Shown here: positions 1,184 through 19,145 of the stretch, in pieces
Layout of the letters: every line of letters starts with the position of its first letter
How positions within the stretch are numbered: position 1 is the stretch's first letter
Translations under genes and position numbers: made by a program
The notes under the pieces: model-generated
Databases searched by the model: none
What the model was told of the DNA's origin: nothing
The model's input: only the letters and a program-made list of their open reading frames with translations
Origin: Vampirovibrionales bacterium
GTDB taxonomy: Bacteria; Cyanobacteriota; Vampirovibrionia; Vampirovibrionales; JAJTHC01
Direction of reading: 5' to 3'
Length of the DNA stretch: 64,000 bases
NCBI GenBank assembly: GCA_044348005.1
Contig: JBIKTR010000004.1
Coordinates: 66,980 to 130,979, forward strand

Positions 1184-2197
1184 TCAAATAATCCATTCCC
1201 ACTGCGGAATGCCTTGAAAATAAAGCAAGGCGCTTAAATCATTGAACTGCACACAAACGCGACTTTGGGCTTGTACGGCTTTTTTGGCATGAAACGCCAC
1301 GCCCATGCCACTGGCTTGAAGCATGCGCAAATCATTCGCGCCGTCGCCCACGCACAGGGTGGATTCAAGGGGAAGCGACAGGCGTTTGCTGTAATAGACT
1401 AAGGCGTCGTGCTTGGCTTGTTGGCCTAAAATCGGGGGAATAACTTCGCCTGTAAAGACGCCGTCTGCTTCTTCAAGGCGGTTGGCTTGGTGGGCATCCA
1501 TGCGTAACTCATCGGCCACGGCTTGGGTAAAGGGGGTGAATCCGCCAGAAACCAGCACGCTAAAGGCGCCAAAATGCTTCATGGTTTGCACCAAGGTGTG
1601 GGCCCCCGCCATGCGAGAGGTCGTGCGTAAAACGTCTTGTACACATTCAACAGGCAGGCCTTTTAACAAGGCGACTCGCTCAATGAGCGCCTCTTCAAAA
1701 TTCAGCGTCCCGTTCATGGCGGCTTCGGTAATGCGAGCGACTTCGGCTTTTTTACCGACAAAATCCGCCAATTCATCAATGCATTCGCCTTCTAAAAAGG
1801 TGGAATCCATGTCGCTCATCAGCAACGCTTTTCGACGTGCAAAGGCATCATCCACAGGGTGAAGGCACCAATCGAGCTTGAAACCGTCTAGGGCGTCTTT
1901 AACGAGGGCGTGCATGCCAAAAAAGGCACAGGGTTCTTCGAGTTCTAGGGTAAAATCCCACGCCGATTGGTGTTCGGCTACCGCAGGGTGGTTTAAAGGC
2001 GTGAGTTGAGCCACGTGCAAGGGCATAAAATAATTCAAACCTTCCACCAACACAGGCACATTTTTCGCCCGAACGGATTCCCAGCGGTGGGTGGCGTGTT
2101 GATGCGGTTGCCAGCGTAAATCTTGGGCGGCTAAAACAACCGTAAGCACCCATGTTTTATAGGGTTTTTCCCAGTTGATGGGGGGGGCTTCATTCAT
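1184..2197 (-). CDS. serB: Phosphoserine phosphatase (HAD family) with N-terminal regulatory domain
   Basis: DMDSTFL (DxD nucleophile), VSGGF, GDGANDL HAD motifs; start chosen at MNEAPP (2197) giving an ATGA overlap with the upstream gene; ORF extends to 2248. Confidence 0.85.
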   Translation of the reverse strand: MNEAPPINWEKPYKTWVLTVVLAAQDLRWQPHQHATHRWESVRAKNVPVLVEGLNYFMPLHVAQLTPLNHPAVAEHQSAWDFTLELEEPCAFFGMHALVKDALDGFKLDWCLHPVDDAFARRKALLMSDMDSTFLEGECIDELADFVGKKAEVARITEAAMNGTLNFEEALIERVALLKGLPVECVQDVLRTTSRMAGAHTLVQTMKHFGAFSVLVSGGFTPFTQAVADELRMDAHQANRLEEADGVFTGEVIPPILGQQAKHDALVYYSKRLSLPLESTLCVGDGANDLRMLQASGMGVAFHAKKAVQAQSRVCVQFNDLSALLYFQGIPQWEWII

Positions 2198-2796
2198 GCC
2201 ATGGCATCCGAAAGGTTGTGGTGGTGGGCTTCTAAAATGGCGAGCCACGGTGTGCGCCCTTGCTGAACAATCGCGGCGTCCACGTCAAAACGCATACACC
2301 CAAAACACGGGGAATGGCAACACACTTTGTCTGTTTCAACGGAAAAGGCATCCACGGCTTCAGGGGTGAGCGCGAGCTGTTGATAAATATAAGCTTGAAG
2401 GGCCTCTTCACGTTCAGGCGTCCACGTTTGGCCTTCATGCAGTTCAACGGCCAATTTGACTTGGCTTTGCGCAATTTCACGAAATTCGTTGGGGGTGAGG
2501 GTGGGGAGCTTCACGTTGCGTTGGAAGTAACGCCCAAACCAAATTTGAGCAATACCGTAGTGTTGGAGTAAATCAGCGTCGTTCAAGCCCGCTTCTTCAA
2601 GAAAGCCTTGCCCTAAGGCGTAGGCAAGCGTGCCATCGGGATTGTAGGCGGTTTCAGTGGCGATGCGTCGTTCAAAATCACAGACGTGTTGGGCATAAGC
2701 GCTTTGAAGCTGAGGATCAGGGAAAGTCATGGGCGTCCTTTTTGCGTTTTTTGGGGGGAGTGATTCTATTGTATCGGAAGCAGAAGCGCTATTCAA
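2194..2796 (-). CDS. Hypothetical protein with C-terminal CCHSPCFGC cysteine cluster
   Basis: 200 aa ORF (start alternatively MTFPDP at 2730); stop overlaps the serB start (ATGA); no confident family assignment. Confidence 0.5.
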   Translation of the reverse strand: MNSASASDTIESLPPKNAKRTPMTFPDPQLQSAYAQHVCDFERRIATETAYNPDGTLAYALGQGFLEEAGLNDADLLQHYGIAQIWFGRYFQRNVKLPTLTPNEFREIAQSQVKLAVELHEGQTWTPEREEALQAYIYQQLALTPEAVDAFSVETDKVCCHSPCFGCMRFDVDAAIVQQGRTPWLAILEAHHHNLSDAMA

Positions 2797-2843
2797 GCGT
2801 GAAAGTTTTAGGGGTTGACAGAGCCCCCTCTTTTTTTACTATC

Positions 2844-2871
2844 TAAATGAAAGCCCTTGATGCTTTTCTCC
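2844..2871 (+). promoter_or_regulatory. Consensus-like sigma70 promoter (TTGACA-16/17-TACTAT) of paralog-family gene 2906
   Basis: TTGACA at 2844 and TACTAT at 2866; same module upstream of the 12939, 21204 and 22179 genes. Confidence 0.5.
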
Positions 2872-2905
2872 ACTTGTTTCCCTCATCCTTAAAAAAGGTC
2901 TTACT

Positions 2906-3610
2906 ATGATTTCTTCTCTCTCTCGTTTTGGCACGTCTTTGCCCGCTTATTCAACCAACCCTGCCTTTACTGCCACGACTGAGAACAGTAAAGCACTAGG
3001 GGTCTCTTCACGGGCTAACACCCAACGCCAAGGCTTTTCTATCTTTACATTCACTGGGATGATGATGGAAACTGATTTAAAACCCAATCAAGTTAGTTTT
3101 ACTCCTTCTCAAGTACAAGATAAACTAACGGATATATTTGATAGAAACCTTCCTCGAGATATTGTTCCTTATCTAAAGGAGCGCTTTGAAAGTGTCTTTC
3201 CCAACACGGCCGATCCACTGACTGTTCTCAAAGATTGGCTTGGGGGGAAAGGGCAGGATACACCGCCAATTACAAAAAAAACGCTTCGTGCCTACATTCA
3301 AGATTGTAAGTTTTATGCAAGGATGTTAGAACAAGCAGAAACCCCAGTTCAAACAAGAAAGACAGGAAAAAAACCGAGCTCAGCTAACAAAACAAAGTTA
3401 GATAAATGGGTAGAAAAAATGCGTGATAAAGAATGGAGTGAACTCCCTCTTACTACAACAGAACAGAGACGATGGGCTTCTTACAAGATTTGGCTTAAGC
3501 TAGAGCTACAACATAGAAACACGACAGATCAAAAACAAGCACGCGGGCAGTTATTTACAAACTTGATTCCTAAATTAAAAGCATTACTACCCCCTGTTCC
3601 AGCCAAGTAG
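2906..3610 (+). CDS. Hypothetical protein, member of a paralog family with shared N-terminal ~45 aa (..N.QRQGF motif) and a unique helical C-terminus
   Basis: N-terminus MISSLSRFGTSLPAY..ANTQRQGFS parallels the 21204 and 22179 proteins; AT-rich C-terminal body; ATG start. Confidence 0.6.
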   Translation: MISSLSRFGTSLPAYSTNPAFTATTENSKALGVSSRANTQRQGFSIFTFTGMMMETDLKPNQVSFTPSQVQDKLTDIFDRNLPRDIVPYLKERFESVFPNTADPLTVLKDWLGGKGQDTPPITKKTLRAYIQDCKFYARMLEQAETPVQTRKTGKKPSSANKTKLDKWVEKMRDKEWSELPLTTTEQRRWASYKIWLKLELQHRNTTDQKQARGQLFTNLIPKLKALLPPVPAK

Positions 3611-5954: not shown

Positions 5955-6836
5955 TTACTTGTTTTCTAAGGTGGGGGGTGTGTTGAAGCCTTTAGGGAAG
6001 CTTTTTTCAAGCAATAAAATACGGCTTTGCGATTGCAACGCCAGTGCTGAGCCGGGATCCATTTGAATACAGCGTTCATAATACATCCACGCGCTTTGGG
6101 GTTGCTTGGCTTCATGGTAAAGCGTCGCGAGGTTAAAGAAGCTCGGCGGGTGTTTGGGATTGACCAACAAGGCGTTTTTATAGGCGTCAACTGCTTTTTC
6201 ATGCTGGCCCTGTTGTTGAAGAATCGTGCCTAAATTAAACCAGTGCCGTTCTGTTTCAGGGTACCATTGGGTCAAAGAAGTCAACAGCGCGAGGGCTTTT
6301 TCGCTTTGTGCCGATTCATGCAACGCCATGGCCCACCCCGCCACAGATGCTTCATGCCGTGGGCTTAACCCCACGGCTTTTTCAAAATAAGGCATGGCTT
6401 GCTTGGCGTGCGATTCGCTCAATTCAATATACCCTAAATTACTGTGGGCTTCCACCAAGTCAGGATTCAACTTAAGCGCCTGTTTAAAGGCTTTTTTCGC
6501 ATTTTGACGCAACCGGTACGATTCCCCGATGCTTTGGGTGCTGGTGCCTTGAGACGCGTGAAACAGCCGAACCCCTTCATTATAAATCACCACGGCTTCT
6601 TCTTTGGGCGCAAGCGTTGGGACGACTTCATTCGAGGGAGCCGGCTGGGTGAGTTTAGTGACTTTGGGCGCCTTTTTAGCAGGCGGCGTTGCTGTGACGC
6701 TTGATGCGGGTGTGGCGGGTGTGTGGGTTGGGGACGTTTGGGGACGCTTCACGCCCGCCTGCGCGGTGGGCAACGCCCAAGCCACGAAAAGCGCTAGAAC
6801 AAGTGCAAGGCAGAAGAAGGGACGAAGATTGAACAA
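5955..6836 (-). CDS. Secreted TPR-repeat protein with Pro/Thr-rich linker
   Basis: Signal peptide MFNLRPFFCLALVLALFVAWALPTAQA (TTG start, GAGGTG RBS); TPR-like helical repeats; G9 tract immediately upstream. Confidence 0.65.
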   Translation of the reverse strand: MFNLRPFFCLALVLALFVAWALPTAQAGVKRPQTSPTHTPATPASSVTATPPAKKAPKVTKLTQPAPSNEVVPTLAPKEEAVVIYNEGVRLFHASQGTSTQSIGESYRLRQNAKKAFKQALKLNPDLVEAHSNLGYIELSESHAKQAMPYFEKAVGLSPRHEASVAGWAMALHESAQSEKALALLTSLTQWYPETERHWFNLGTILQQQGQHEKAVDAYKNALLVNPKHPPSFFNLATLYHEAKQPQSAWMYYERCIQMDPGSALALQSQSRILLLEKSFPKGFNTPPTLENK

Positions 6837-6985
6837 GGCATCACCTCAAGGGGGGGGGTAAAGTCAGGCAGGGCAGGCACAAGTGGCCGTTACTAACTTT
6901 TAGTGTAGCATAGAATCCACAAACGCCATACACCTTAAGGTTAATTTTAGGTAAGGTTAATTTATAATTTCAACATAACGCAAAG

Positions 6986-8075: not shown

Positions 8076-9257
8076 TCAAAAGTTGAGCGTTTCGGCGTAA
8101 CCCGCGAGTTCTACATAGGCCCTGCCTTGCACCGGCGTTTGGCCCCGCGTGCCTGTAACAAGGTTCGCCCCTTCCCAATAGCTTAACGCCCTTTGCTTAG
8201 AAAAATAGAGTTCCTGTTCAGCCAAGGCAGGCGTTACGCGTAAGTTCAGCTTTAGGGCAGGCACCTTTAGTTCCCACGCACTGGGGTAGTTTACCCCACT
8301 TTGCGCACTCTTCCACCGGTTCAACACCTTTAATTCAAGTTCTTTTGCGGTGAATCGAATCACTTGGCCCGTTTTGCTCACCCACGTGGCGCCACTTTGC
8401 GGAGAAATCCCGCCATTTTTTTCACGCATGAAGTACAGCATCAGTTCTTGCCCGTCGTCTAACTGAATGGCAAACCAGTCCCACCCCACTTGTGTTTTAC
8501 TTAATTGAGACGAGCCAAACTCGTGATCAAACCAACTGTTGCCTGTTACTTGAAACACACGATCCTTCAAACGGGCGTGGGGGTCTTTGAGCGTCACGTG
8601 GCCCGTGGTTGAAATGTGGGTAAAACTATAGTACATGGACGCACAACTGGCACAGCTCCCTTTTTTAGAATAGCCGTTTGACGTTCCGTGAAAGACCTTG
8701 TCCTTCTTGGGAACCAAGTGTAAATCAAGCGAAAAGTGGGTGTCCTGCACGCTTAAATCCCACCGAGGGAGAGCCTCTTTTGGGTGGGGCCGTTCTTTGA
8801 GGCTCAGGCTTTTGGCCATAAAGCGCCACGGTTCTACTTTAACAACGTCACGAAAGGGGTTTTGGCGTTCATAGGCCGTGCTATAATAAAAATGCTTACC
8901 GCTTAGATCGCTCAAGGCCACATGAACCATGTACAGCTGTTGAGGCTTCCACGCACTGGATCTTAGCGTCAAGCTTTGTACCGCAGTGGGGCGTGAAAGT
9001 CGAAACAAGGTGGCCTCATACCCAAAGTGATGCGGGGCTTGAAAGGGCTGCCAAGGCGTGGCCAAATGACCCGTGGTGTACCACCATTCATTGGCGTAAT
9101 CAGGGTGTTCACCCTGATCTTGCGGGAATTGCCAGCGGTAATTAGGTTTAGCGATTAAAAACGGCGTGGTTGAAGATCCGCTGGCGTGAGCGGGTGGGCC
9201 ATTCAGCGAAAGCACCGTTGCGACCACGGTTAATACGAGTAAAATCATCCGCCACAT
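8076..9257 (-). CDS. AttH/CrtC-like lipocalin-domain secreted protein (hydroxyneurosporene synthase family)
   Basis: Signal peptide MWRMILLVLTVVATVLS; motif WQFPQDQGEHPDYANEWWYTTGHL typical of AttH/CrtC; ORF extends to 9413. Confidence 0.7.
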   Translation of the reverse strand: MWRMILLVLTVVATVLSLNGPPAHASGSSTTPFLIAKPNYRWQFPQDQGEHPDYANEWWYTTGHLATPWQPFQAPHHFGYEATLFRLSRPTAVQSLTLRSSAWKPQQLYMVHVALSDLSGKHFYYSTAYERQNPFRDVVKVEPWRFMAKSLSLKERPHPKEALPRWDLSVQDTHFSLDLHLVPKKDKVFHGTSNGYSKKGSCASCASMYYSFTHISTTGHVTLKDPHARLKDRVFQVTGNSWFDHEFGSSQLSKTQVGWDWFAIQLDDGQELMLYFMREKNGGISPQSGATWVSKTGQVIRFTAKELELKVLNRWKSAQSGVNYPSAWELKVPALKLNLRVTPALAEQELYFSKQRALSYWEGANLVTGTRGQTPVQGRAYVELAGYAETLNF

Positions 9258-13508: not shown

Positions 13509-15698
13509 ATGGATGCCTTAGCTCTTACCCCCCTTCAACAACGATGCCAAACGTGGTCGCAACTCGCCCAAGCCCGAAATTGGTCCGCGCTTGACGCCCT
13601 TAATCAAGACACGATCAACACCCTTAAACAGGCGTGGCAAGGCCACGGCGTGCTTGCCACCCTACAATGGAACCCCCACCCCGGAGATCTGGCGGGCAAC
13701 GCGCAACTGGTGGAACAGGCCATGCAATTCGCCGAAGCCCTCGGCGCCGATGCCCTTGTGCTTCCAGAACAAACGCTCTTGGGCTACCCCTTGCGAGACA
13801 TGCTCTTGCGCTTTCCCAAGCTGGTGAAAGACAATGAATCGGCGCTACAGGCCTTGGCGTTAAAATCAGGCCACACGCGGGTTTTTGTGGGTTTTGCTGA
13901 GCGTCGTTACGACGCGGATGAAGGCTGGGGCCATTCCTGGGGCAAGCCGTATTACAACAGCGTGGCCATTTTAGGCGGGGGCGTCATTCAAGGCGTGGTG
14001 CGAAAAAGCCTGTTGCCGAATTACCATGAATTTGAAGATTCTCGGGTGTTTGAAGCCAGCGAAACCCCCGGCGTCCAGCGATGGGAACTCCCTCACCCCA
14101 ACCCTCTCCCAGAGGGAGAGGGAGTAAGACAGGGGGCTGTGGCCTTAGAACCCTCTCCCTCTGGGAGAGGGCAGGGTGAGGGTTTCGACCAGCTCGAGGG
14201 GGGGGAAGACCCTCATCCTAACCTTCTCCCAGAGGGAGAAGGAACAAAACCCCCTCACCCCAACCCTCTCCCAGAGGGAGAGGGAGTAAAAGACCCCCTC
14301 GACGCCTACGGCAACATCACCATTCACGGACGCAAGTTCGCCGTGACGGTGTGTGAAGACCTATGGGCGAACGAACCGAATCAACACCCGTGGTACAAGC
14401 AAAACGTCGTCGCCCCGCTCATGCAAGGGCATCCCGATGTGCTGGTGAACCTGTCGTCGTCGCCGTCTCGGGCGGGCAAGGAATACCGCAGGCAGTCGCT
14501 CTTGCGTTCGATTGCCACGCAGTACCGCACCCCCATTCTCTACGTCAACCAAGTCGGCGCGGTGGATGAACTCATCTTCGACGGAGGCTCTCGGTTGGTG
14601 GGGGCGCACGGCGAAATGCTCAGTCGTTCGCGCTTGTTTGAAACGCAGTTTAGCCTGCATCATCTGCAAAACACGGCCTTTCACACCCTTGAAGACTGGG
14701 TGCCTGATGTGGAACTTTCCCAACGAAGCCTGCCCAACGATGTGTTTGACCCCTACGATCCAAGCGATTTGCCGCGCACGTATGCCGCCCTGACCTGCGG
14801 GATTCGCGATTACTTCGACAAATGCGGATTCACGCGCGCGGTGTTGGGCCTTTCTGGCGGACTCGATTCCGCCGTCAATGCCGTGTTAGTGGCGGATGCC
14901 TTGGGGGCTGAAAACGTGCTAGCCTTTAGCTTTCCTTCTGAGCTCACGCCTGCTGACAATAAAGACGACGCCCTACAACTCGCCCAAAATCTTGGCATCG
15001 GCTGGGTGGAAATCCCTATTTCGGCGATGCAATCGGCGTTTTTAGAGGGCATTGACGCCGAACGCCAAACGCTAGAATCGTTGTGGGGCAAGCCGACTAG
15101 CGAAAGTTTTGCGAAAGACAACGTACAAGCCATGAGCCGTGCGACGCTGTTGAGACTCATTGGCAATGATTACCGCGCCCTGCCCATTGCCACCAGTGAC
15201 AAAAGCGAGTTTTACATGGGTTACGCCACCGTGAATGGGGATATGTCTGGGGCGTTGGCGCCGTTGGGCGATGTGTGCAAAACCAAGGTGCGCGCCTTGG
15301 CCCGCTGGATCAATCAACAGCGCGGGGGGGTGATACCGCAAGCCGTGGTGGAACGTCCTTCGGGGGCGGATTTGGCGGTGAATCCGCAAACAGGCCAACT
15401 GTTGACGGCCGAAGAAGCGTTGATGCCCTATGAAGTGATTGACGAGTTGATTTGGCGGATTGAAGCCCACCACCTAGATGCCGCCCGCCTAAGCACCCTG
15501 CTGTGGAGCTGGGAACGCACGCACGGTAGACTTGAACCCACGCAGAAGGCGGCGTGGGTGGGTAAGTTTTTTAGGCGCATGCAGGCCAGTGTGTTTAAGT
15601 GGTGGGTGGCCCCGCCGATGTTGCTGGTGGACGCCAACGGCACGCTGGCAAAATCGGCGTACCACCCCGTGATTACCGCAATGAAGACGCTATACTAG
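13509..15698 (+). CDS. nadE: Glutamine-dependent NAD+ synthetase (nitrilase domain plus NAD synthetase domain) carrying an in-frame 70-aa repeat insertion
   Basis: N-terminal CN-hydrolase region (VCEDLWA); C-terminal NadE (LGLSGGLDSAV P-loop-like SGGxDS); ATG at 13509, the ORF can extend to TTG 13491. Confidence 0.85.
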   Translation: MDALALTPLQQRCQTWSQLAQARNWSALDALNQDTINTLKQAWQGHGVLATLQWNPHPGDLAGNAQLVEQAMQFAEALGADALVLPEQTLLGYPLRDMLLRFPKLVKDNESALQALALKSGHTRVFVGFAERRYDADEGWGHSWGKPYYNSVAILGGGVIQGVVRKSLLPNYHEFEDSRVFEASETPGVQRWELPHPNPLPEGEGVRQGAVALEPSPSGRGQGEGFDQLEGGEDPHPNLLPEGEGTKPPHPNPLPEGEGVKDPLDAYGNITIHGRKFAVTVCEDLWANEPNQHPWYKQNVVAPLMQGHPDVLVNLSSSPSRAGKEYRRQSLLRSIATQYRTPILYVNQVGAVDELIFDGGSRLVGAHGEMLSRSRLFETQFSLHHLQNTAFHTLEDWVPDVELSQRSLPNDVFDPYDPSDLPRTYAALTCGIRDYFDKCGFTRAVLGLSGGLDSAVNAVLVADALGAENVLAFSFPSELTPADNKDDALQLAQNLGIGWVEIPISAMQSAFLEGIDAERQTLESLWGKPTSESFAKDNVQAMSRATLLRLIGNDYRALPIATSDKSEFYMGYATVNGDMSGALAPLGDVCKTKVRALARWINQQRGGVIPQAVVERPSGADLAVNPQTGQLLTAEEALMPYEVIDELIWRIEAHHLDAARLSTLLWSWERTHGRLEPTQKAAWVGKFFRRMQASVFKWWVAPPMLLVDANGTLAKSAYHPVITAMKTLY
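14086..14295 (+). repeat. Four palindromic repeat units inserted in frame within nadE
   Basis: R1 units at 14089-14136 and 14253-14295 and R2-like units at 14148-14196 and 14210-14250 translate as LPHPNPLPEGEGV...PSPSGRGQGEG...PHPNLLPEGEGT..PHPNPLPEGEGV between VQRWE and LDAYGNITIHG. Confidence 0.85.
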
Positions 15699-15717: not shown

Positions 15718-16008
15718 TTAGTTTTTTTGGGGGAAACACGGTCCTGTTCTAATCCAACCACCGTAGTCCTGTTTCAGCTTGTGGACATGATTATTCGCAG
15801 CTGGAATTGTATCAAATGGTTTAGTTTCATTTGAACCATTGTTACTAATGATAATTTTATTATTTTGGAGGCGTGCCTTTACTAATACATCGTTAACAGG
15901 AGTTAAGACTGAAGTGGGTGATGGCTGAACTCGTATTGGTCTTCTTGCAGTAAATAGGATTTCTGGTGTTTTAGTTAGTTGTACACCACATAATTGAATT
16001 AATCCCAT
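15718..16008 (-). CDS. Small hypothetical protein (~96 aa, two Cys), tandem paralog sharing its leader with 16116-16415
   Basis: Start MGLIQL placed 8 nt after the shared AAAGGAA; ORF runs up to 16107 through the homopolymer region; AT-rich. Confidence 0.4.
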   Translation of the reverse strand: MGLIQLCGVQLTKTPEILFTARRPIRVQPSPTSVLTPVNDVLVKARLQNNKIIISNNGSNETKPFDTIPAANNHVHKLKQDYGGWIRTGPCFPQKN

Positions 16009-16038
16009 AAAAATAGTTCCTTTCATTAGGAGAGTTAA

Positions 16039-16067
16039 GGGGGGGGTAAAAAGAGAGAGAGGGGGGG
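16039..16067. repeat. G8-(AG)4-G7 homopolymer/dinucleotide tract in the leader of the 15718 gene
   Basis: gggggggg taaaa agagagag ggggggg read directly. Confidence 0.9.
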
Positions 16068-16115
16068 CGTGTGGGTTGGTCAGGTGAGTGGCGCAAGCAC
16101 CACTCACCGTTGAAG

Positions 16116-16415
16116 CTAGTTAAGTAATTGCTCAAATGGTTGGTTTGTGCAAGAAGTAACTAGGTTATAACCTTGACCTGTTAGTTTATTGGCTTCCGTG
16201 TTCAAGAATCGTGCAGTAGCTTTCGTATCGCCAATGGTCTGAGTAGGAAGCCCATTTGAATAATGCACCCTGTGTGCTCCAGTACTGAACGTCGTTGTTA
16301 TTTCGATTGGGCGCTCACTACCTTTTTTGGCTACAATCTTATTGTACTGACCATTACCTGATTTATTTACACAAGCGCGGTTAAAGGTCTTTGGACCCGT
16401 TATAGTTCCTGCCAT
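16116..16415 (-). CDS. Small hypothetical protein (99 aa, two Cys), tandem paralog
   Basis: ATG 7 nt after AAAGGAA; leader ttaactctcctaatgaaaggaa identical to that of the 15718 gene and preceded by a 15-nt homopolymer. Confidence 0.45.
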   Translation of the reverse strand: MAGTITGPKTFNRACVNKSGNGQYNKIVAKKGSERPIEITTTFSTGAHRVHYSNGLPTQTIGDTKATARFLNTEANKLTGQGYNLVTSCTNQPFEQLLN

Positions 16416-16444
16416 ATTTAAATTCCTTTCATTAGGAGAGTTAA

Positions 16445-16459
16445 GGGGGGGGGGGGGGG
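16445..16459. repeat. 15-nt poly-G (poly-C on the coding strand) tract 29 nt upstream of the 16415 start codon
   Basis: Uninterrupted G15 directly abutting the conserved leader ttaactctcctaatgaaaggaa. Confidence 0.9.
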
Positions 16460-16639
16460 AGTAAATACAGAAGGTATTCTTCTGTGTCTTAATAAAAACA
16501 ATCTTTCCTTAAGAATTAACCCCCTTGTTACAATTGTTTACGTGGGGTTGTTCCCAAAAACCCCCCAACACCCTAAAAATAGTGGGGTTTAGGCACTGTT
16601 TTTATGTCGAAACCTTTGTCATACTGCAAGCGTAACCTT

Positions 16640-17175
16640 ATAGAACCCTCCCTCCTCCTAGCCTCCTCCCTTAGGGAGGAGGAACAAGAACCCCCTCACC
16701 CCAACCCTCTCCCAGAGGGAGAGGGAGTAAATACAGAACCCTCCCTCCACCTAACCTCCTCCCTAAGGGAGGAGGAACAGAACCCTCTCCCTAAGGGAGG
16801 AGGAACAAGAACCCTCTCCCTTAGGGAGCACGCCTCGCCGATGGCGGGCTACGCAGGGTGAGGGAAACGACCAGCTCCAGTGGGGAAGAGTCCCTCCTCC
16901 TAGCCTCCTCCCTTAGGGAGGAGGAACAAGAACCCTCTCCCTTAGGGAGAGGGCAGGGTGAGGGAAACGACCAGCTCCAGTCGGGAAGAGTCCCTCCTCC
17001 TAACCTTCTCCCAAAGGGAGGAGGAATAAGAACCCTCTCCCTTAGGGAGAGGGCAGGGTGAGGGAAACGACCAGCTCCAGTCGGGAAGAGTCCCTCCTCC
17101 TAGCCTCCTCCCTTAGGGAGGAGGAACAGAACCCCCTCACCCCAACCCTCTCCCAGAGGGAGAGGGGGTAAATAC
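16640..17175. repeat. BIME-like tandem mosaic array of hairpin units (families R1, R2, R3)
   Basis: About 11 units: R3 cctcctccc-tta-gggaggagg (LLLASSLREEEQ), R2 ccctctccc-tta-gggagagggcagggtgagggaaacgaccagctccag (three copies), and R1 at 16686-16730 and 17133-17175; irregular unit order with no unique spacers. Confidence 0.85.
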
Positions 17176-17207
17176 AGAACCTCAAAAAAGAAAGAGAGAC
17201 CCTGAAC

Positions 17208-19145
17208 ATGAACGCCCCCTATTCCCCCGATCAAAACCCCTACGTCCACCTTGCGAGCTTTTGCCGAACGGCCGTGTGGCAAGAAATGGATGCCATTAAC
17301 GAAGCGCTGCCCCCTGAAGCCCAGTTTTTGGCCCGCCTGCAAAGCCCCCCCGCCTGGGATGCCCGCCGCCAAGCCATCATTGAAAAACGCACCGCCCTTT
17401 ACGAACGCCTCAAGCAAGACGACGCGCTGGCCGAACTCATGCACCACGACTGCCGAAACAACATCCTGCTGTGGTTTCGCTACTTCGCGTGGACGTACGA
17501 CCCACGCCCCAACCCCTTTCAAAACGGCAATCGAAGCATTGGGCGCGTGCCCTTTGTGCTGTACCCCTTTCAAATGGAAGTCGTCTTGCGCTTGAATGAA
17601 GCCATTGAATTGGGGGAAGATTTACTGGTGGAAAAAAGCCGAGACATGGGCCTTTCTTGGTTAATTAGTTTGGTGTTTCAGTACCGCTGGTTGTTTCATT
17701 CAGGCCAGCAATTTTTGGTGGGCAGTCGTAAATACGGCCATGCAGACACGCGCGGCGATCTTTCCACGCTGATGGAAAAATGCCGTTTCAACCTGCGTGA
17801 ACAGCCCACCAATATGTTGCCTGCGGGCTTTGACTTTCGCAAGCACGATGTCGCCGGTCGTCTGCTGAATCCGCAAAATGGCAATACCATTATTGCTGAA
17901 GCCACTACGGAAAACTTTGCGCGGGGGGGGCGTTATTCCGCCGTATTGCTGGACGAATTTGCGTTTTGGATGTGGGATGATGGCGCCTATGCTGCGGCGG
18001 GTCAGTCCACGCTGTGTCGCTTGTTGGTGTCAACGCCCAACGGTCGAAAAAACCGCTTTGCCCTAGAACGCTTTTCAGGCCTTACCCCCGTGCTAACCGT
18101 GCATTGGAGCCTTCACCCTTTTAAGGACAAGGTGTGGTACACCGCACAGCAACGGCGCCTGTTGAAGCATGAAATCGCGCGAGAGCTGGATATTAGCTAC
18201 GAATACTGCAATCGAGATCGCGTGTTTGAAGAGTTTACCGCTCAACATGTGGCGCACGTGGCGTATAATCCGGATTTGGAGATTTTGCGTTCGTGGGATT
18301 TTGGGTACCATACGCCTGCGGTGTTGGCCTTACAGCGGGACGAATGGGGCCGTGTGGTGGTGTTGAAAGAATGGGTGGGCCAACGCGTGGTGCTCAAAAA
18401 CTTTGCCCAGCAGGTGAAAGACGACTGCGTGGCGATGTTTGGCCCCAATGCGCGCTTTCGCGATGTGTGTGACCCTGCGGGGCATCAGCATAACGACAAA
18501 TCTGAAAACACCAGTATTGAAGTGCTCAATCGCATGGGTATTCACCCTGTGGGCGTGCGATGTGGCGTGGTTGCTAGCATTGACAAGCTTCGCCACCTGA
18601 TGATTGAAGAGCGCGATGTGCCAGTGTCCCTCACCCCAGCCCTCTCCCAAAGGGAGAGGGAGCAAGGCGACCCTCACCCCAACCCTCTCCCAGAGGGAGA
18701 GGGGGTAAATACAGAACCCTCTCCCTTAGGGAGAGGGCTGGGTGAGGGACACGACCAGCTCCTGTGGGAACAAGGCATCCCTCCACCTAGCCTCCTCCCT
18801 AAGGGAGGAGGAACAAATGCCAGTGAAGAAGCCGTCTTCATGCGTGAAGGCCAGCACATGGTCAAATCCCCCGCCTTTTTGGTGGATGCTCAACATTGCC
18901 CCACGCTCATTGACGCCTTGCAAGGGGGGTATCGCTATGTGTCGAATGATTCGGAAGAACTGGCGCAGGAGCATCCCTTTGAAGATGTGGCGGATGCCTT
19001 GCGTTACGCCGTGTGGGAATTGGGCAAACTGCTGATGGATTCGTCTGATTGGGCGCGGGACTTGCGAAAGGAGCGGTATCAGAAGTGGGAAGCGTTGGAA
19101 AAGTTGCGTCGCTACAACCAGCGCCGTGGGCAGTGGTATGCCTAG
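17208..19145 (+). CDS. Phage terminase large subunit (Terminase_6-like) with in-frame repeat insertion
   Basis: KSRDMGLSWL P-loop variant (KSRQ.G.S type), VLLDEFAFW Walker B, C-terminal nuclease region WDFGYHTPAVLAL...DVCDPAG; no portal, capsid or small-subunit genes nearby. Confidence 0.75.
   Translation: MNAPYSPDQNPYVHLASFCRTAVWQEMDAINEALPPEAQFLARLQSPPAWDARRQAIIEKRTALYERLKQDDALAELMHHDCRNNILLWFRYFAWTYDPRPNPFQNGNRSIGRVPFVLYPFQMEVVLRLNEAIELGEDLLVEKSRDMGLSWLISLVFQYRWLFHSGQQFLVGSRKYGHADTRGDLSTLMEKCRFNLREQPTNMLPAGFDFRKHDVAGRLLNPQNGNTIIAEATTENFARGGRYSAVLLDEFAFWMWDDGAYAAAGQSTLCRLLVSTPNGRKNRFALERFSGLTPVLTVHWSLHPFKDKVWYTAQQRRLLKHEIARELDISYEYCNRDRVFEEFTAQHVAHVAYNPDLEILRSWDFGYHTPAVLALQRDEWGRVVVLKEWVGQRVVLKNFAQQVKDDCVAMFGPNARFRDVCDPAGHQHNDKSENTSIEVLNRMGIHPVGVRCGVVASIDKLRHLMIEERDVPVSLTPALSQREREQGDPHPNPLPEGEGVNTEPSPLGRGLGEGHDQLLWEQGIPPPSLLPKGGGTNASEEAVFMREGQHMVKSPAFLVDAQHCPTLIDALQGGYRYVSNDSEELAQEHPFEDVADALRYAVWELGKLLMDSSDWARDLRKERYQKWEALEKLRRYNQRRGQWYA
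18625..18822 (+). repeat. R1-R1-R2-R3 repeat units inserted in frame within the terminase gene
   Basis: Translate as SLTPALSQREREQGDPHPNPLPEGEGVNTEPSPLGRGLGEGHDQLLWEQGIPPPSLLPKGGGTNA, in the same orientation and frame type as the nadE insertion. Confidence 0.85.

Follow-up and report, generated by a model that had tools for sequence, protein, structure and literature searches.

Homopolymeric tracts in the control regions of variable genes are known from several bacteria. In Mycoplasma hyorhinis the tandem vlp genes, encoding variable lipoproteins, have a conserved 5' region with a poly-A tract between the -35 and -10 elements. The opc and porA promoters of Neisseria meningitidis contain poly-C and poly-G tracts, respectively; both are single genes for an outer-membrane protein in a pathogen restricted to its host, and their switching has been measured. 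To our knowledge homopolymer-driven contingency loci are described almost only from host-adapted pathogens. In the Bordetella genes fim2, fim3 and fimX variation in the length of a promoter C-stretch, which ranges from C7 to C22, alters transcription, single-C changes included, and the fim genes of B. parapertussis carry the interrupted tracts C6TC3 and C9TC8 (PMC1891110); phase variation by simple sequence repeats in Neisseria at large is covered by PMC5084427. Here, we describe two small genes, designated A and B, that each follow a poly-C tract and an identical leader in a stretch of 64,000 nucleotides (nt) from the chromosome of a Vampirovibrionales bacterium (Melainabacteria; contig JBIKTR010000004.1), in the following called the window. 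The locus to which they belong is genuine; in a clade of freshwater Vampirovibrionales it codes for hypervariable small proteins, and its promoter-proximal tracts are prone to slippage. The kind of layout is already known; what is new is such a conserved locus with promoter-proximal poly-C in an unexpected lineage. Its elements in the numbering of the window are:

16116-16415, minus strand: small gene A, 99 residues, ATG start, Cys15 and Cys89; first cassette of the array
15718-16008, minus strand: small gene B, 96 residues, Cys7 and Cys91; second cassette, convergent with nadE
15718-16026, minus strand: longer form of gene B, 102 residues, from an in-frame ATG (16024-16026) within the leader
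16423-16444, minus strand: leader copy A, TTAACTCTCCTAATGAAAGGAA, in which AAGGAA resembles a Shine-Dalgarno sequence and a mini-ORF (open reading frame, ORF) begins
16017-16038, minus strand: leader copy B, identical to copy A
16445-16459, minus strand: tract A, poly-C of 15 (C15), in front of gene A
16039-16067, minus strand: B-type pyrimidine module with C7 (16061-16067), (TC)4 (16053-16060), T5A (16047-16052) and C8 (16039-16046)
16083-16108, minus strand: GC-rich hairpin GGTGAGTGGTGCTTGCGCCACTCACC, 3' of gene A, fold z = -3.35, no adjoining U-run
16460-16626, minus strand: conserved non-coding region of about 165 nt upstream of the first cassette, ending exactly at the poly-C

The 22-nt leader occurs exactly twice in the window, compared with 0.01 copies expected by chance, and the identity between the two units reaches 30 nt when the shared C8 directly upstream is included. 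In both units AAGGAA sits 8-9 nt ahead of the ATG. The ATG inside the leader of unit A opens a mini-ORF of four codons (MKGI*, 16418-16432), which stops 2 nt ahead of the real start of gene A; in unit B the leader ATG is in the same frame as the gene. Both tracts lie outside ORFs, 30-33 nt ahead of the ATG, and they represent gene-linked homopolymers of about 8 nt or longer (C15 at 16445-16459 and C8 at 16039-16046). C/G runs of 7-9 are fairly common in the window and mostly coding; C15 is the only homopolymer above 9. The gene bodies are AT-rich, with a G+C content of 0.42 in A and 0.37 in B (0.35 and 0.25 at third codon positions) vs 0.58 in nadE. A first-pass annotation, made from the letters of the window, had pointed to two small proteins with two cysteines each behind one Shine-Dalgarno-bearing leader, to the AT-rich bodies and to tracts of unequal length, and had proposed a search for further leader copies. 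All of these features were recovered on the minus strand, and the difference in tract length extends from the two loci to homologous modules with near-identical flanks; only its formula for the composite tract at 16039-16067 lists the blocks in plus-strand order. The motif TTTACNCCCCCC has three copies in the window (0.02 expected), the third at 6851-6862. There, a TTTA-C9-TT tract (6850-6858, minus strand) stands 2 nt ahead of a GAGG Shine-Dalgarno sequence and 13 nt ahead of a TTG start; the gene behind it (5955-6836) encodes a TPR protein with a signal-peptide-like N-terminus.

The same architecture is present in relatives, which are referred to by L-numbers as labels of the contigs or lineages compared with the window (L001 is an independent contig). 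In the closest lineages the interval between a conserved terminase-like (TerL-like) gene and nadE, the gene of a glutamine-dependent NAD synthetase, is occupied by one to three small genes arrayed on the minus strand; the more distant relatives L008-L013 are without an array. The arrays comprise:

L005, L029 and L030: g0 of 111, g1 of 86 and g2 of 94 residues
L007: a g0-like gene and a g1 orthologue of 88 residues
L006: gA of 123 and gB of 126 residues
L039-L041: a g2-like gene
L042 and L043: a 94%-identical variant of gene B of the window

The intergenic module begins after the stop codon with a GC-rich hairpin, followed by 15-25 nt, C5-8(TC)3-4 (or TCCC) and T5A; then come an optional C and one other base, the poly-C, TTA..., an A-rich leader, AGGAA and finally ATG. 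It was found in at least six lineages, in which CTCTC/CTCCC-TTTTTA on the 5' side and TTA on the 3' side are invariant, and the leader spans 17 nt from the end of the tract to AGGA in six units and 16 nt in one. The box (C)n(TC)nT5A together with poly-C precedes both genes of the window and one to three genes in each relative. The hairpin at 16083-16108 is conserved in L004, and relatives have a different hairpin at the same place; a role of the hairpins as intrinsic terminators was rejected, since no U-run adjoins them. The A- and B-type leaders of L029 differ from each other, so the leader identity of A and B reflects a homogenisation specific to the lineage of the window.

Length of the poly-C is the chief difference between homologous modules that are otherwise near-identical. 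The following lengths were read from consensus assemblies, in which minority states would be hidden:

A-type tract: C15 in the window and L001, C9 in L004, C7 in L029 and L033, interrupted (ATCCCCCCTACC) in L006
B-type tract of gene B: C8 in the window and L001, C9 in L042 and L043
B-type tract of g1: C11 in L029 and L030 (and L005), C7 in the L007 orthologue
B-type tract of g2: C8, with C9 in front of the g2-like gene of L039 and L041
B-type tract of L006: C12

The cleanest pair is formed by the window and L004, which are identical at 59 of 61 upstream bases and all 22 leader bases, show one change in the downstream hairpin region and differ by six C in the tract (C15 vs C9). Look-ups via the TerL-like protein and nadE added no further assemblies of the C15 tract.

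On the upstream side conservation stops at the tract. The region of about 165 nt is near-invariant in the window, L004, L029 and L006, lineages between which the synonymous divergence (dS) of nadE amounts to 0.30-0.60, and it is thus better conserved than the synonymous sites of nadE. It contains the palindromes ACAATTGT, CTTAAG and ACAGAAG-N5-CTTCTGT (16467-16485) as well as two copies of the direct repeat AACCCCAC, and it terminates at TATTTA(C/T)(T) followed by poly-C, beyond which leader and gene vary by lineage. It is probably a multi-operator regulatory region. A reading as riboswitch or small RNA was dropped for lack of a significant RNA fold in this region (z = -1.0); with a permissive threshold, Rfam returned only sub-threshold miRNA-like matches on palindromic repeats and none at the module. 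In our reading the A-type unit has one candidate promoter:

16485-16490 (AAGACA) and 16462-16467 (TATTTA), minus strand, separated by 17 nt: candidate promoter of the A-type unit

This is the only sigma70-like pair conserved in all four A-type lineages, with TATATT in L029. The best promoter reading would place the A-type tract at about +2 onward and hence at the start of the transcript rather than in a promoter spacer. Directly 5' of every tract TTTAC(N) resembles a -35 element (match in 4/6 positions), and 7-10 nt past the tract TAATGA, CCTAAT or TAAAAA is found. The spacers implied in this way measure 17-19 nt in window B, its variant and L004, and 25 nt in window A.

The cassette proteins of 86-126 residues are ORFans, mostly with one N-terminal and one C-terminal cysteine. 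This pattern holds for 6/8 of the small proteins initially collected and for both g2-like proteins found later; proteins A and B possess exactly two cysteines each, one close to either end. Apart from this pair and their overall size A and B have nothing in common. BLASTP between them gives E = 1.3 and profile scores fall within the range of shuffled sequences, which means that homology is not detectable and that the designation as paralogs in the first-pass annotation is an interpretation, not an observation. Its suggestion of a foreign origin is weakened too, since within the clade the locus is ancestral and its synteny is kept. Among 5.8 billion proteins an index search yielded only the query proteins themselves and the 94%-identical variant of B (P0002), which differs in its N-terminus and in the 3' end of its leader and has a C9 tract. 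An exhaustive HMMER scan revealed a single true homologue of A, P0005, with 103 residues and 47-53% identity depending on the alignment (E = 5e-13). It keeps both cysteines, and three indels (18, 3 and 21 nt), none of which shifts the frame, separate its gene from A. A profile search picked up the families of g1 and g2, and a weak C-terminal QGYxxxxxC motif links A-type and L005 g1-type proteins (hhalign E = 0.026), B being excluded.

The ratio of nonsynonymous to synonymous divergence (dN/dS; Nei-Gojobori, pairwise) is 1.7, 4.3, 1.4 and 1.1 in four orthologous pairs, and the pooled pN/pS is 1.63 for the small genes (Fisher p = 0.04 vs neutrality), compared with 0.18-0.20 for nadE. Between the window and L004 the gene body shows dS 0.20 and dN 0.35, and both flanks have diverged by about 3%. 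Since the frames stay open, the indels are in frame and the cysteine pair is conserved, these data favour genuine proteins, shaped by diversifying selection or by an exchange of alleles, over non-coding DNA. As to structure prediction, which the first-pass annotation had recommended, the AlphaFold2 (AF2) confidence (predicted local distance difference test, pLDDT) for protein A rises from 36 for the single sequence to 71 with a family alignment of eight sequences. In the predicted beta3-(beta)-alpha-beta fold a meander of three strands is followed by a short strand, a long helix and one last strand. No significant structural match resulted from it, as Foldseek with the model of A found nothing below E = 0.04 in PDB and BFVD and the papain-like top matches (AvrPphB, Josephin) are not significant. 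A WGR domain, considered on account of the C-terminal helix-GY motif, was discarded: there is no Pfam match, and a WGR protein reaches only rank 45 in BFVD (E = 0.68). Within the coding sequence of the g1 orthologue of L007 there are an in-frame C9 (PPP, 8249-8257) and (GGTAAT)3 (NGNGNG, 8222-8239); both are absent from the L005 orthologue, so that simple repeats vary within genes too.

Cassette content is polymorphic. In L033 (639-751, compared with L029 2383-2886) g0 is directly followed by g2, and the whole cassette g1 is missing. The left side of the junction is of g0 type and the right side of g2 type, and the crossover falls inside a hairpin segment of 31 nt common to both modules, which indicates the loss of one cassette through recombination of the direct repeats. 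In the variant of gene B from L042/L043 the 3' end of the leader and the first six codons are different and the rest of the body is near-identical. No integrase or recombinase gene was found within about 6 kb of the locus, no reverse transcriptase domain among the neighbours scanned, and no second or template copy of either gene body in the window. A diversity-generating retroelement was rejected on the latter two grounds; an integron cassette array was rejected as well, with no intI among the neighbours, hairpins without attC core and the only GTT motif, GTTAAGG, failing GTTRRRY.

Our preferred interpretation, to which we give a little under an even chance, is that the poly-C represents a slippage-prone, expression-tuning tract of contingency-like character. 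It is supported by the conserved module, by a length that varies while the flanks hold, by the unique C15 and by the upstream region that ends at the tract, and further by the fast evolution of the genes, the polymorphic cassettes and the known analogue of the Bordetella C-stretch. Each cassette consists of a pyrimidine-rich control module, an ORFan protein and a GC hairpin. Cassettes would be gained and lost through recombination between the repeated modules, their proteins would be under diversifying selection, and changes in tract length would set the expression strength of the individual cassette in a heritable but mutable manner. For the B-type modules an effect on promoter geometry is conceivable, comparable to that of the C-stretch in Bordetella fim or of the poly-A in Mycoplasma vlp; in the A-type unit a changed length may shift where transcription starts or modify the untranslated region at its 5' end. 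C15 ahead of A would then be an extreme, probably low-expression or off state, and C8 ahead of B the common one. The architecture and its conservation, the allelic differences in tract length, the rapid evolution of the proteins and the loss of a cassette are evident from the sequences; from them we infer an influence of tract length on expression and a switching of the tract at an ecological pace, and phase variation is a plausible hypothesis. A far-reaching version is a hitherto undescribed combinatorial contingency system, that is an array of rapidly diversifying mini-proteins with cysteine pairs, each switched independently by its own poly-C promoter tract and reshuffled via the modules, which would vary the interaction with prey, phage or kin. 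We consider this version unlikely. If true, it would be the first phase variation by simple sequence repeats in Cyanobacteriota/Melainabacteria and in a free-living lake bacterium. Vampirovibrionales are relatives of an algal predator.

Several observations weigh against an expression-tuning tract. Whereas 4/4 orthologous allele pairs differ in tract length (C15/C9, C8/C9 and C11/C7 among them), 0/13 replicate independent assemblies of one allele do: the g2 allele has C8 in eight samples (JGI, ENA, Logan), alleles with C7, C9, C9, C11 and C15 are represented by two each, and L029 and L030 both have C11 despite single-nucleotide differences in the module. Length change is therefore placed on the time scale of allele divergence, as far as assemblies tell, and rapid flipping at the population level is hypothetical. 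The sigma70-like pair of the A-type unit lies upstream of the tract, and a consensus promoter scan called no promoter at this unit, because the -10 element lacks the final T. Downstream of the tract no -10 hexamer is consistent across the units, with implied spacers from 10 to 25 nt, and the small proteins have no match in Pfam, PHROG, PADLOC, NCBIfam, PDB or BFVD. The first-pass annotation had proposed a phase-variable locus and had named a tract length invariant across deep reads and strains beforehand as refuting it. What stands of this proposal is a conserved promoter-proximal module whose tract length varies between alleles. Invariance is seen in all assemblies of the same allele, so that the refuting outcome has come about in part. 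The position of the tracts relative to the promoter is ambiguous; in our reading the conserved A-type pair would put that tract at or after the transcription start and not in a promoter spacer.

An alternative, which seems quite possible, if somewhat doubtful, is that the tract is passive. The array would be a single operon transcribed from the conserved upstream promoter, and slippage would let the poly-C grow and shrink while expression changed little or not at all, without phase variation; in such an operon it may be a passive part of a pyrimidine-rich spacer. Hairpin and module would together form an intercistronic region for RNA processing and ribosome loading, in which the hairpin would stabilise the RNA and the unstructured C/U stretch would be a standby site before the Shine-Dalgarno sequence. 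Besides the length stability within alleles across eight samples, the B-type modules fit this idea. In our reading they lack a -35/-10 pair, with the -11 A missing from TTTTTA, and their C/U-rich stretch is predicted to be single-stranded directly 3' of a strong hairpin. The constant 16-17 nt between tract end and AGGA would suit a role in translation initiation, and runs of C7-C9 are common in this genome, inside genes too. Neutral homopolymer runs, however, usually decay, and here many lineages have retained a pure, long run (up to C15) whose position is fixed. The flanks TTTA(C) on the 5' and TT(A) on the 3' side remain invariant even where the remainder differs, length is the most variable character of the module, and the same TTTA-C9-TT motif precedes an unrelated gene.

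A further explanation takes the module mainly as a junction for cassette exchange, at which bodies are swapped behind a fixed control region and length variation is a by-product of repair. A-type conservation indeed stops exactly at the tract, the body of window vs L004 is far more diverged than its flanks, a gene B variant has a swapped leader 3' end and N-terminus, L033 has lost a cassette and the A/B leaders were homogenised in the lineage of the window only. Nevertheless, we regard this explanation as improbable: the sole mapped crossover lies in the hairpin repeat and not in the tract, ordinary homologous recombination between repeats suffices for the deletion, and the absence of a nearby integrase or recombinase gene, of an attC-like core and of a template copy of the bodies in the window speaks against it. 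Finally, the ORFs could be chance frames in an AT-rich spacer and the C-run an artefact of assembly or sequencing. A pN/pS near or above 1, the lack of a database family and several contigs that break near the modules would agree with this, but it is hardly credible, as the reading frames remain uninterrupted despite an amino-acid divergence of 47% and three indels, each with a length divisible by 3, the cysteine pair is conserved and AF2 confidence goes up with the family alignment. Moreover, the same tracts appear in independent JGI, ENA, Logan and NCBI assemblies, and the 30-nt and hairpin repeats account for the contig breaks.

The surroundings of the array are those of an ordinary chromosome, with genes for a murG-like protein, an RRM protein, folD, a GGDEF protein, a histidine kinase, nadE and a SIMPL protein. 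Gene B ends 19 nt from the convergent stop of nadE. On the upstream side the non-coding region (16460-16626) is followed by two further features:

16641-17207: cluster of palindromic repeats
17208-19145: TerL-like gene, stand-alone, PHROG 2 (E = 1.5e-16), divergent from the conserved control region of the array

No other phage genes were found near the TerL-like gene. Its counterparts in relatives (L029 1-1053, L011 from about 4650 onward) are syntenic and near-identical at the N-terminus, and the neighbouring small-gene array is wholly different. The palindromic units, CCCTCTCCC-NNN-GGGAGAGGG, CCTCCTCCC-TTA-GGGAGGAGG and similar ones, form the cluster at 16641-17207, including tandem copies of 100 nt. 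Such units are also inserted in frame into two conserved genes, nadE (about 14100-14320, with a shorter insert in L006) and the TerL-like gene (about 18620-18830). The peptides they encode there are PHPNPLPEGEGV-like, which recalls the Rickettsia palindromic elements. A variant of the repeat unit starts with GGTTCTGTATTTAC(T/C)CCCTCTCCC at 16727-16738, 17168-17179 and 18705-18716 and has as many as 16 nt (TTCTGTATTTACTCCC, without mismatch in the 16727 copy) in common with the conserved 5' flank of C15 (16461-16472), which suggests a historical link between the palindromic repeat element and the tract region.

Some observations concern other sites. In L004 (470-1058) the contig of 1058 nt turns, after the conserved hairpin, into an LssY_C-domain gene of about 65% GC; this contig may be chimeric, or the cassette may stand in another context in that organism. 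L006 (8094-10332, plus strand) and L011 (about 2770-3430) contain a paralogue family of 221-253 residues with a near-perfect TTGACA-N16/17-TATTCT promoter and a conserved N-terminus (...SMAYKAA.PP.QR.GA.L) on unrelated bodies, which in some relatives is located between array and nadE. L011, which is without array, has a C11 (4419-4429) within the first 17 codons of a minus-strand ORF of 168 residues in the TerL-nadE interval, a possible coding-frame homopolymer switch. In the window a C8 run (2180-2187, minus strand) lies in the overlap of two minus-strand ORFs in different frames, 2194-2796 and 1184-2248 (HAD hydrolase domain), and could be a homopolymer frameshift, either real or an assembly error.

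Among species-representative genomes nearly all nadE relatives are labelled as metagenome-assembled genomes of Vampirovibrionales/Melainabacteria, the closest being Lake Mendota bins with 78-80% identity. The exact small proteins are present in JGI metagenome contigs, apparently of the same Lake Mendota series. The exact leader gave no match in genome, viral and metagenome collections, the source samples evidently being outside those sets. A degenerate pattern of the module hit six loci in the metagenome collection, none with the leader or the AGGAA-ATG arrangement, and these appear to be low-complexity chance matches.

No report on phase variation in Vampirovibrio or Melainabacteria was found in the literature. 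Poly-C control of positively selected ORFans in uncultured lake Vampirovibrionales would extend the contingency strategy to environmental, possibly predatory bacteria. The locus marks a compact, fast-evolving protein family whose targets (prey, phage, competitors) could be sought, and time-series metagenomes of the Lake Mendota type hold these strains, which makes the hypothesis directly testable at read level. Should the tract be neutral, the locus would still be a clean hypervariable cassette hotspot between two highly conserved genes.

Comparison with described systems shows where this locus stands. With integrons it shares a row of small, mostly ORFan genes of the same orientation behind a single conserved promoter region, cassette content that varies by strain and structured repeats between the genes; in contrast to them it has neither integrase nor attC cores, and homologous recombination of direct repeats accounts for the loss of cassettes. 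Like opc and porA, it has a C/G tract just upstream of the start signals of a gene under diversifying selection, with lengths in the range of 8-15, but its genes are small cytoplasmic-looking ORFans in a cassette array, with a consensus length that is stable within alleles. The vlp system differs in having poly-A instead of poly-C, a lipoprotein signal peptide and internal coding tandem repeats (here limited to the in-frame C9 and (GGTAAT)3 of the L007 gene), and the promoter-spacer location is only a candidate here. Common to both are tandem divergent small genes with near-identical 5' control and leader sequences on different bodies and an array size that varies by strain, and with one homopolymer per gene independent toggling is conceivable by analogy. 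None of the proteins presented here is a fimbrial subunit, Pfam and NCBIfam giving no match for them, no BvgA-like activator or defined -10 element is known, and the host is an environmental Melainabacterium, in which an effect of the tract on expression would be the counterpart of that in Bordetella. In layout, and as an analogy of layout only, the locus resembles fim2, fim3, fimX and fimN of Bordetella in its conserved promoter-proximal box and variable poly-C (here C7-C15) before several genes, and this likeness includes the interrupted tract found in some lineages, here in L006.

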